A DNA stretch of 64,000 nucleotides, taken from a virus. Where the stretch lies: IMG/VR virus record IMGVR_UViG_3300021963_004241, positions 1 through 64,000 of that record; one strand, written 5' to 3'. Position 1 is the stretch's first letter. Each line of letters starts with the position of its first letter. Below, in pieces: positions 14,919-28,922 of the stretch. The translations under genes were made by a program, and so were the position numbers. A model generated the notes under the pieces. That model searched no databases. It saw only the letters and a list, made by a program, of their open reading frames with translations, and was not told the DNA's origin.

Positions 14919-15287
14919 TTATTTCTTTCTACCTGCACAGTGCGCACGTTGGCTAAATCCTTTAGGATTGTTGCAGTTAATTGATTTTTTATACTTCTCG
15001 CTCCATTTTTCTTGTAGCTGAGTTTGTACTTTTTCTAATCTTGCTTCCTCAAAGCTTCTTGGTCCGCGATTGATCGCTTCACCTTTGGCTTTTTCATATT
15101 CTGTATACTGCACGACATTATTCAAATGATCGGCAGCAATAGTAATCTTTTCTTGTACCCAACCCATTAATTCTTCATTCTCGTCGATCATTTTCAAAAG
15201 TTTCACAGCATTTTTAGCGATGCTTAAAAGATCGCTTTTTGCCATTCTTCCTTCATGATCGTCTTTATGTTGAATTTCGAGGTCCAT
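14919..15287 (-). CDS. Putative internal head protein
   Basis: DHEGRMAKSDL module, then LQE followed by the basic Cys-containing peptide KWSEKYKKSINC...HCAGRKK. Confidence 0.55.
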   Translation of the reverse strand: MDLEIQHKDDHEGRMAKSDLLSIAKNAVKLLKMIDENEELMGWVQEKITIAADHLNNVVQYTEYEKAKGEAINRGPRSFEEARLEKVQTQLQEKWSEKYKKSINCNNPKGFSQRAHCAGRKK

Positions 15288-15564: not shown

Positions 15565-16353
15565 TTATTTACCGTATTTTGAAAGATACTGGTAAAGTCC
15601 TTTTTTGACTCTGTTCCAGGCTGTTTCTTTGCTGTATTTTAAGAATCGCCCATAATATTCTATAGCTGCGTACAGAGCATTTAAGTTAGGTACTTGTACA
15701 ATCTTTCCGCCTATTGTTGCATAATCTTGGCGCTGTGCTTGTCTAAGAATATTGTCTAGATTTCCTAGACTATCCTTTCCAAATTTATTATAGATGTCGT
15801 TAGCAATTTGGCTAATCCAAGCATCTTTTTCCATGTTATCTAATGTGTAAAGATAATATTGATCTCTTTTAGTTAGCGCCTTAGGTGGAGTCTTTTTCCA
15901 AACACTAGTTTCTAGATCAAATACATCCTGATCATTTTTTGATTTTTTTATCTGTTGTGTGCGCTGACTAGCATGATTGAGCTCGTGAATTAATAGGGAA
16001 CTTAATCTGTCTATAAAGTTATTTGAAGTTTTTTCATCTGTAGGTGCGTGTGCTACATTAACTTCTACTGTGATTAAGTGTTTAATGGGATCGCCTGATA
16101 TTTCGTGTTCTGCTTCTAATGCAGAATATTGACTGTCCGGTCTATCTAACAATTTAGGTTTAATTGTTAGAGGTCTGCTGAGTGTAGCTTCTCTCCATTT
16201 AGTTAATTCTTCGCTCTTATTAAGATTTTTAAAAAACTTACCGTACCAATCTAGATCATTATTATACGAACCTATATTGGAAACAGCCTTAGCTATCCAG
16301 GGTCTTACCCAGGATGTTTCCATGCGTTCGATAATAAATTCACCGGCTCTCAT
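15565..16353 (-). CDS. Zincin-like metallopeptidase with MRAGEFIIE tag
   Basis: IHELNH...MEKDA. Confidence 0.6.
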   Translation of the reverse strand: MRAGEFIIERMETSWVRPWIAKAVSNIGSYNNDLDWYGKFFKNLNKSEELTKWREATLSRPLTIKPKLLDRPDSQYSALEAEHEISGDPIKHLITVEVNVAHAPTDEKTSNNFIDRLSSLLIHELNHASQRTQQIKKSKNDQDVFDLETSVWKKTPPKALTKRDQYYLYTLDNMEKDAWISQIANDIYNKFGKDSLGNLDNILRQAQRQDYATIGGKIVQVPNLNALYAAIEYYGRFLKYSKETAWNRVKKGLYQYLSKYGK

Positions 16354-17264
16354 TTACTACGACCGCCTTTCATGTTGGCACACCAGTGATACATTTTAGC
16401 TTTTTCGCCTGAAGCGTTTTTTGCACGTTTACGTAGATCAGTCACAGAGCCCGAACAACTAGCACCTGCACGTTTTACTCGTCCTGGGCGACTTTTACCT
16501 TTTACTTTACCGTCTGCAAAATTCTCATTAGTCATTCCGAGGTTTGCCGATGACCAGGTTGTTCTTAAAATTTTACCTTGATATCTAATTTCAATATTGC
16601 ATCTTCCTAATTGATTTTTTTCACATATACCTATTATTAATTCAGATGCTTGATTTAACTGCGACTTAACATCGCCTTTAAATTTGCCTGTAAGATCAAG
16701 TTCTTTAAATTCGCCTTCTATTGATATACGTGCGATCATTCTATCTGGATCTGATTTATCCTGCGCTTGAGCAGCACTTCCTAATGCTGCTCCTGCAGCC
16801 GCAGCACCTCCGAATTTTAAGAAATCTCTTCTGCTTATAGCTTCATCAAATTCAACAGCCTGCATTTTTAAATACTGAGGATATTTTTTATTAAATGTCC
16901 TCATCATTTCTCCAGCTTTCTCGTGAGCTTCATTTTCTGTAGGACTTCCAGTTTTCCAACTGTTTTTGCCTAATCTACCTTCTAAGTCTTGTTTATAGTG
17001 AACTAGTTCGTGTGCTAATGTTCTAATGATATCGTTTGGATTTCGTTCTTCGATGTCTAACTCTATAGATTTGTATTCGTCACTATGATGATAGCAACCG
17101 AATGTTGGTTGATCGTGTTTGCTGACTACATCCTTTGAAAATTTTATTTCTGGAATACTAGGTAACTTGAGGAAAGATACGGCGAGTGGCATAAAATCTT
17201 CAATAGCATCTTCTAGAGTAAATTTATTTTCTGCATTTTCTATTATGAATTCTTTTGCTCTCAT
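16350..17264 (-). CDS. Modular protein: MRAKEFIIE tag, HExxH peptidase domain, internal Tat-like signal, basic C-terminal peptide
   Basis: AHELVH...ENEA; SRRDFLK; NFADGKVKGKSRPGRVKRAG. Confidence 0.65.
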   Translation of the reverse strand: MRAKEFIIENAENKFTLEDAIEDFMPLAVSFLKLPSIPEIKFSKDVVSKHDQPTFGCYHHSDEYKSIELDIEERNPNDIIRTLAHELVHYKQDLEGRLGKNSWKTGSPTENEAHEKAGEMMRTFNKKYPQYLKMQAVEFDEAISRRDFLKFGGAAAAGAALGSAAQAQDKSDPDRMIARISIEGEFKELDLTGKFKGDVKSQLNQASELIIGICEKNQLGRCNIEIRYQGKILRTTWSSANLGMTNENFADGKVKGKSRPGRVKRAGASCSGSVTDLRKRAKNASGEKAKMYHWCANMKGGRSK

Positions 17265-27116: not shown

Positions 27117-27338
27117 TTATTTTTTCTTGGCATCTTCAAGCTTTGTGCCTTCGTGCTTCTTGTGTTTCTTTACTTCTTTGCATTCTTGCTTTGGCTTCTT
27201 AGTCTTTGGATCAATTACAGGCTTGCCGTCTTTGCCCTGTACATCAACGCATACTTTGGTTGTTTCTGCGGCATCTGCTGCATACACGGGATACGATAGT
27301 GCCAAAGCCAACCCTGCTACAAAAATTATATGTTTCAT
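27117..27338 (-). CDS. Small secreted basic protein
   Basis: Sec signal MKHIIFVAGLALALSYPVYA; two Cys. Confidence 0.7.
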   Translation of the reverse strand: MKHIIFVAGLALALSYPVYAADAAETTKVCVDVQGKDGKPVIDPKTKKPKQECKEVKKHKKHEGTKLEDAKKK

Positions 27339-28655: not shown

Positions 28656-28922
28656 TTATTTAATTGAATCGTAAATTTTTTTGTTTTCTTGGTACCACTC
28701 TTGCCAAGCTTCTACTTTGACTTTACAGCCGTGATATTTGCTGTAATTTCTAATAACCACTTCTGCTGTGGTACTTAATTGCTTTGTATCTTTTGGAATT
28801 TTTTCTAAATCTGGGCAAGCTTCCAATAATTCTGCAGGAACTTCTGGAAACTTTGGAACCACTGGAGCAGTAGTAGAACAACCGATTAAAAATGCACTAA
28901 GGAACAATGCTAGGTATTTCAT
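28656..28922 (-). CDS. o-spanin (Rz1-like lipoprotein)
   Basis: Lipobox LIGC, Pro-rich, extra Cys residues; follows the i-spanin. Confidence 0.8.
   Translation of the reverse strand: MKYLALFLSAFLIGCSTTAPVVPKFPEVPAELLEACPDLEKIPKDTKQLSTTAEVVIRNYSKYHGCKVKVEAWQEWYQENKKIYDSIK

Follow-up and report, generated by a model that had tools for sequence, protein, structure and literature searches.

Several described systems share parts of the arrangement reported here. The internal proteins of phage T4 (IPI, IPII, IPIII and Alt) carry a capsid targeting sequence (CTS), are processed by the head protease gp21 and are injected with the DNA (PMC9026906, PMC8442874, PMC3012670). gp21 cuts at L/I-x-E, and related jumbo-phage head proteases have a similar preference; in addition, T4 delivers proteins fused to the CTS, which refold in the recipient cell (PMC9026906). 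The polyvalent proteins of phages and conjugative elements (Iyer et al. 2017, PMC5512222) carry unrelated effector-type domains in each chain, which are freely shuffled among relatives, and delivery with the DNA followed by proteolytic release has been predicted for them (PMC5512222). Regarding export signals that lie away from a protein's N-terminus, the bipartite transit peptides of chloroplast lumen proteins provide one precedent: a peptidase removes the upstream targeting part and exposes a second, Tat- or Sec-type signal, which is later removed by signal peptidase at A-x-A (PMC10267391). Another is found in dual Sec-Tat membrane proteins such as actinobacterial Rieske proteins, in which a twin-arginine motif works at a great distance from the N-terminus, after Sec-inserted transmembrane helices, and is not cleaved off (PMC3471235, PMC5449189).

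The stretch of DNA analysed here, a 64-kb window, belongs to a viral contig of 111 kb, rated ~31% complete by CheckV. The contig originates from an uncultured giant T4-related (jumbo) phage, the nearest family-B DNA polymerases being those of Sinorhizobium phage Phosso (51%), Agrobacterium phage Atu_ph07 (47%) and Rak2-like E. coli phages (44%); no DNA near-identical to the window was found among the phage records searched. Reading expression timing from T4-type late promoters was dropped, as the late promoter motif TATAAATA was observed in 1 copy in the window versus 7 expected. The locus of interest is an ORF encoding a polyvalent-type phage protein, a putative cargo protein, which is built of a CTS-like leader, a zincin peptidase, a Tat cassette and a basic tail. 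Its features, all on the minus strand, are the following:

16350-17264, minus strand: the whole modular ORF of 304 amino acids, with its stop codon at 16350-16352
17238-17264, minus strand: N-terminal leader, residues 1-9, ending in I-I-E, which fits the L/I-x-E rule of gp21, and resembling the T4 capsid targeting sequence
16860-17222, minus strand: zincin-like metallopeptidase domain (MPTase / IrrE-SprT-like), residues ~15-135, assigned from the AF2 model, Foldseek and motif conservation
16998-17012, minus strand: HExxH motif, residues 85-89, within the zincin-like domain
16935-16937, minus strand: invariant Glu110, within the zincin-like domain
16863-16865, minus strand: ATG (Met134) in the same frame, 8 codons before Ala142, at which translation might start internally
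16842-16850, minus strand: junction F139-D140-E141, candidate endoproteolytic site after Glu141; the Glu is conserved here and the segment is disordered in the AF2 model
16764-16841, minus strand: Tat-type signal peptide, residues 142-167, with twin arginines R145-R146, assigned by Pfam and TIGR01409
16524-16763, minus strand: passenger domain, residues 168-247, modelled as one helix between two hairpins (AF2 pLDDT ~80)
16524-16532, minus strand: junction T245-N246-E247 at the end of the passenger domain, its Glu preceding the basic tail
16353-16523, minus strand: basic C-terminal module, residues 248-304, with a Cys...His-Trp-Cys pattern, the commonest tail of the protein family

A protein from other assemblies, P0001, also has 304 residues, is 92% identical and has the same architecture. 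The leader, compared with the T4 CTS sequence given in PMC8442874, is common to three neighbouring ORFs starting at 16353, 17546 and 19148. Like the T4 internal proteins, the ORF has a short leader with E-F-I-x-E and a hydrophobic-x-Glu end, and it belongs to a hypervariable gene cluster whose otherwise unrelated products have nothing but the leader in common, in T4-related phages. One of these neighbours, a 262-residue ORF at 15565-16353 (minus strand), carries the same leader, its own HExxH and weak Pfam matches to predicted Zn proteases, and is a second, unrelated metallopeptidase-like cargo gene of the same cluster. The T4 internal proteins are single small basic proteins with one cut, whereas the 304-residue protein contains several modules at Glu junctions, one of them with an export signal. 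Two small proteins of the window (27117-27338 and 28656-28922, both minus strand) have ordinary N-terminal signals of Sec and lipoprotein type without the leader, so the phage combines the buried signal with export signals of the usual kind.

[quoted passage not shown] The domain also matches viral "IrrE N-terminal-like" proteins (E 3e-11), and H85, E86, H89 and E110 are invariant across 27 sequences. As modelled, residues ~15-135 have the topology of the zincin-like MPTase, the hub domain of polyvalent proteins, which is described there with the same HExxH and downstream Glu, three-stranded sheet and N-terminal helix (PMC5512222). The basic C-terminal module lies far above every other part of the family in conservation, being 93-96% identical in P0001 and P0013 while other parts of such proteins reach only 45-60%; it may be a DNA-binding or head-retention element.

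Between these two parts lies the putative export signal. Within residues 142-167, S-R-R-D-F-L-K leads into a Gly/Ala-rich h-region and then A-Q-A; the next residue is Q168. The twin-arginine consensus S/T-R-R-x-F-L-K is satisfied by residues 144-150, the h-region spans residues 151-164 and A-Q-A residues 165-167, with a signal-peptidase cut predicted after Ala167. The segment matched the Pfam model TAT_signal (PF10518) at residues 143-162 with 30 bits (cut-off 22.7; E 4.3e-7), and the NCBIfam model TIGR01409 with 25.8 bits against 16.7; a six-frame scan of the 111-kb contig returned it as the sole match to a Tat model (E 6e-9). By these two curated models it is an authentic Tat-type signal, as predicted from the sequence. 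The motif, h-region and AxA claimed in the preliminary description for 16764-16841 were thus recovered at exactly residues 142-167, and the position directly after V-E-F-D-E was likewise correct, those five residues being 137-141 and forming the disordered end of the peptidase module in the AF2 model. What the segment lacks of a Tat signal is the N-terminal location, since it starts at residue 142 of 304.

Relatives of the 304-residue protein are numerous (3900 word-indexed, 2793 representatives at 50% identity) and are mosaics of a few modules combined with GH19 muramidase-like, cytidine-deaminase-like, HicA-like, ART, nucleotidyltransferase, Zeta-toxin-like kinase and GP88 domains. A word-limited search with the cassette region returned only 2 proteins, and a profile search was used instead: a passenger-only HMM, from which the signal was excluded, was run on 309 fetched proteins. 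It matched 53, and in 52 of them an RR motif lies at most 45 residues upstream. Loss of the RR in homologues had been set beforehand as grounds for rejecting the idea of a buried signal, and its retention in 52 of the 53 passenger relatives speaks for it. The start of the passenger domain ranges from residue 15 to residue 992 among the 53 proteins, and that of the Tat signal from residue 13 to residue 966. The modules upstream of the cassette are mutually unrelated and include a peptidase, a nucleotidyltransferase, a Cys/His mini-module and a Gly/Tyr-rich module, among others. On this comparison, the predicted Tat signal and the ~80-residue passenger domain form a portable cassette that moves as one unit. 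One 1084-residue relative, P0272 (locus L003), has two twin-arginine signal-like segments, at residues 288 and 966, both of which follow an acidic junction.

The signal could in principle be a relic of module shuffling, carried over from a gene in which it was once N-terminal and now functionless inside the chain. P0013 carries the signal right after the leader, and the A-V-E-F at the end of the peptidase module is similar to the leader's A-K-E-F, a likeness that could have promoted a fusion. About 45 of the 53 occurrences are deeply internal, however, and still keep the RR, the h-region and A-x-A. The twin arginines and A-x-A are kept in the relatives examined, and in five distant pairs the identity is 54-73% in the signal versus 45-56% in the passenger domain. 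The predicted signal is therefore under selection and at least as conserved as its passenger; a decaying relic would not be expected to show this, and we regard that origin as very improbable. In only five proteins (P0013, P0147, P0156, P0255 and P0305) does the signal lie near the N-terminus, 13-34 residues in and right after the leader, which indicates that masking is not obligatory.

The passenger domain itself resembles nothing informative. Foldseek against the PDB gave no informative relative (best E 0.03), and the best VIA-align scores (Z 5.1, to a designed protein and T4 Dmd) are within noise. Only generic small folds were returned from the ESM Atlas, and neither a sequence search of the PDB nor PHROGs, for that part of the protein, gave a match. 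No passenger relatives were found in a pattern-limited scan of one genome each of 185,579 prokaryote species, nor by tblastn in 50,697 phage records. The preliminary description had offered immediate superinfection exclusion as an example of function; this has no basis, and is guesswork because the passenger fold matches nothing recognisable. Two cysteines of the domain, Cys214 and Cys222 (16599-16625, minus strand), occur only in the lineage of this ORF, P0001 and P0013; in other relatives the two places are taken by Phe and Ser. The cysteines might form a disulfide in the periplasm.

The segments that precede the portable modules follow a common rule. In 41 of the 44 distinct contexts of the Tat cassette, the residue directly before it is Glu. 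Looked at across related proteins, as the preliminary description had proposed, the cassette almost always follows a hydrophobic-x-Glu site of the kind that T4-like prohead proteases cut. All 193 contexts of the basic tail have a Glu before it, and in 158 of them the position two residues ahead of that Glu holds V, L, I, F or M. For the Cys/His mini-module, 41 of 44 contexts have a preceding Glu, and the position two residues further upstream is L, V, I or M in all 44. This basic mini-module of ~28 residues with a Cys...His-Cys pattern is found at the ends of proteins or between modules, in the window (14919-15287, minus strand) and in many relatives, among them P0087, P0112, P0025 and P0070. 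Unrelated portable modules that each sit behind hydrophobic-x-Glu point to one common boundary motif. In the 304-residue protein, the boundary tripeptides at residues 7-9, 139-141 and 245-247 lie in linkers, and the other five hydrophobic-x-Glu tripeptides are inside folded parts. The fit is imperfect at P3, which is Phe at the residue 141 junction and often Val or Thr in relatives, versus the Leu/Ile of T4. Judged by its sequence, the hydrophobic-x-Glu junction motif matches the specificity type of T4 gp21. Taken together, we consider it firmly established that a conserved, portable Tat-type signal sits behind a Glu junction in a polyvalent-type phage protein.

With an authentic and conserved signal, a leader, a junction and a polyvalent layout, the best reading is that the signal would be unmasked by a cut after Glu141, and endoproteolysis at this junction is probable. 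The protease responsible is a separate matter. Compared with the polyvalent proteins, the present family adds a CTS-like leader and regular Glu junctions, which would favour a head protease over autoprocessing. A prohead protease (PF03420) gave no match on the ~31%-complete 111-kb fragment, and the control genomes were equally silent. The alternative is a cytoplasmic cut in the producing cell, made by the zincin domain (in cis here and in trans for the relatives) or by a host protease, with export from that same cell. The peptidase domain adjoins the junction and retains H85, E86, H89, E110 and the zincin MPTase fold, and MPTase autoprocessing is a published prediction for polyvalent proteins (PMC5512222). 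The 14 relatives that have no leader would also fit export without packaging: in them the cassette is buried behind a protein-initial nucleotidyltransferase domain, from which it follows that CTS-type packaging is not a universal route. Against a cytoplasmic cut, the peptidase is present in the same chain in only 2 of the 53 passenger-domain proteins, and the junction rule is that of gp21-type serine proteases. We know of no Glu specificity in the zincin peptidase clade. On balance, cleavage of this kind in the producing cell appears unlikely. A fusion of a leaderless nicotinamide-nucleotide-adenylyltransferase-like domain to the Tat cassette was observed in P0252, P0257-P0270 and P0296, and at loci L001, L036 and L038.

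The signal could also become N-terminal with no cut at all, if translation started at Met134, or at a Met before S-R-R in relatives, and yielded an ordinary Tat precursor, of 171 residues in this case. An internal start codon had been named in the preliminary description as a finding that would count against unmasking, and the ATG at 16863-16865, which that description had not noted, is indeed in frame; that part of the objection stands, but no Shine-Dalgarno-like sequence lies upstream of it. The n-region produced in this way would resemble that of the free-standing homologue P0013, and in 27 of the 68 occurrences of the cassette the residue just before S-R-R is Met. On the other hand, Met134 is not conserved among relatives of the peptidase domain, the GAGGA present in some relatives is 1 nt from the ATG, and many relatives lack a Met in the 20-60 residues upstream (P0137, P0087, P0112 and a group with distance 38). 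Internal initiation is thus rated as rather improbable.

Finally, the signal might work without prior cleavage, by looping into TatBC; the C-terminal part would then cross the membrane and be cut loose by signal peptidase, with the peptidase domain left on the cytoplasmic side. Internal twin-arginine motifs do function in the dual Sec-Tat membrane proteins (PMC3471235, PMC5449189), and conservation of A-x-A fits release by signal peptidase in any model. The known internal Tat motifs, however, follow Sec-inserted transmembrane helices, and residues 1-141 contain none; no uncharged hydrophobic stretch was found in them, and these upstream 141 residues are instead occupied by a soluble peptidase domain, with A-x-A following the signal. 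Furthermore, in relatives such as P0294 the cassette has a nucleotidyltransferase upstream and a Zeta-toxin-like kinase downstream. Enzymes of cytoplasmic type located downstream would be exported along with the passenger by an uncut signal, which makes cutting likely to be needed where the cassette is sandwiched in this manner, and the conserved Glu junction would be left without explanation. We judge an uncut internal signal about as improbable as internal initiation.

Returning to cleavage by a head protease, the premise that leader-bearing proteins are packaged was addressed with Atu_ph07, the closest cultured phage that has such data, whose genome was rebuilt from its record. Its ORFs with an M-R/K-W/L-x-Q/D-L-x-E leader were listed (n = 20) and matched to the published virion proteome by mass (within 0.03 kDa) and map position. 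Although that proteome lists only 131 of 714 proteins, 19 of the 20 leader-bearing ORFs match it, and twelve consecutive genes with an M-R/K-W-x-Q-L-x-E leader (MF403008.1, 39484-50592, minus strand) are all present in it. Atu_ph07 encodes a gp21 homologue, gp204. The tagged gp53, the 87-kDa member of that run, was recovered in the published proteome mostly from a gel band in which ~20-kDa proteins migrate, which fits processing. The Tat-signal model gave no match on Atu_ph07 or Phosso, and no internal hydrophobic segment was found in the tagged proteins of Atu_ph07, so that these proteome data speak to packaging and processing only. To our knowledge, no T4 cargo leaves the cytoplasm through Tat.

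Buried addresses of other kinds occur in the same family. Sec-like internal signals are found inside P0229, P0122 and P0152, and 9 of the 11 GH19 muramidase-like modules lie behind a hydrophobic or RR-type segment that follows a Glu junction, 3 of those with an RR motif. In P0024, P0028, P0044, P0046, P0099, P0108, P0144, P0174 and P0237 the order is peptidase domain, Glu junction, hydrophobic or RR-type segment, Pro-rich linker and GH19 muramidase-like domain. From its sequence, this layout looks like a buried signal-anchor placed before a cell-wall hydrolase. A peptidoglycan hydrolase has to cross the inner membrane to act, and the buried addresses therefore look purposeful.

The sequence of events we propose is as follows. 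A trans-acting Glu-cutting protease, most plausibly a prohead protease of gp21 type, would cleave after Glu9, Glu141 and Glu247. The middle piece would then start at Ala142 with its Tat signal exposed, host TatABC would export it, signal peptidase I would trim it after Ala167, and the product would be a small periplasmic protein. We put forward this overall scheme, with a Glu-specific protease acting in trans and export of the middle piece by the host Tat system, tentatively and at somewhat under even confidence. Its weakest step would be the cut inside the capsid, with injection of the piece along with the DNA and export in the newly infected cell; cleavage by the head protease in the capsid and export in the next host are plausible on present sequence comparisons. 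A more far-reaching version, in which the head protease cuts a packaged polyprotein and host Tat sends a ready-made protein to the periplasm of the new host before any phage expression, as one instance of a general code that places an address behind a cut site, is a possibility that we regard as doubtful. The idea of a general code stems from the relatives, which place Tat-, Sec- and anchor-type segments before different cargo, muramidase-like domains included.

Regarding novelty, the preliminary description knew of no such mechanism. This holds for phage cargo, for which we found no description: a search of the literature for links of phages or prohead proteases to twin-arginine signals returned nothing relevant, and the paper on polyvalent proteins does not use the term "signal peptide" (0 occurrences in PMC5512222). 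It does not hold in general, in view of the dual Sec-Tat proteins (PMC3471235, PMC5449189) and of the chloroplast lumen (PMC10267391), where proteolytic unmasking of a second Tat-type signal is textbook knowledge. The chloroplast system differs in that it serves import into a eukaryotic organelle, the part upstream is a transit peptide where the phage protein has folded enzyme domains, and virus particles play no role.

Should the exported piece arise by internal initiation or by autoprocessing in the cytoplasm, the finding would come down to an unusual gene fusion. If cleavage does unmask the signal, giant phages related to T4 would address proteins in two steps, with the capsid as the first destination and the periplasm of the next host as the second. 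The parts of such a system are known separately: a CTS leader, a head protease specific for Glu, injection of proteins and export by Tat. Injected phage proteins would then reach past the cytoplasm, and this would account for the export signals and the hydrolase modules with membrane segments that are buried in long phage proteins across thousands of metagenomic sequences.
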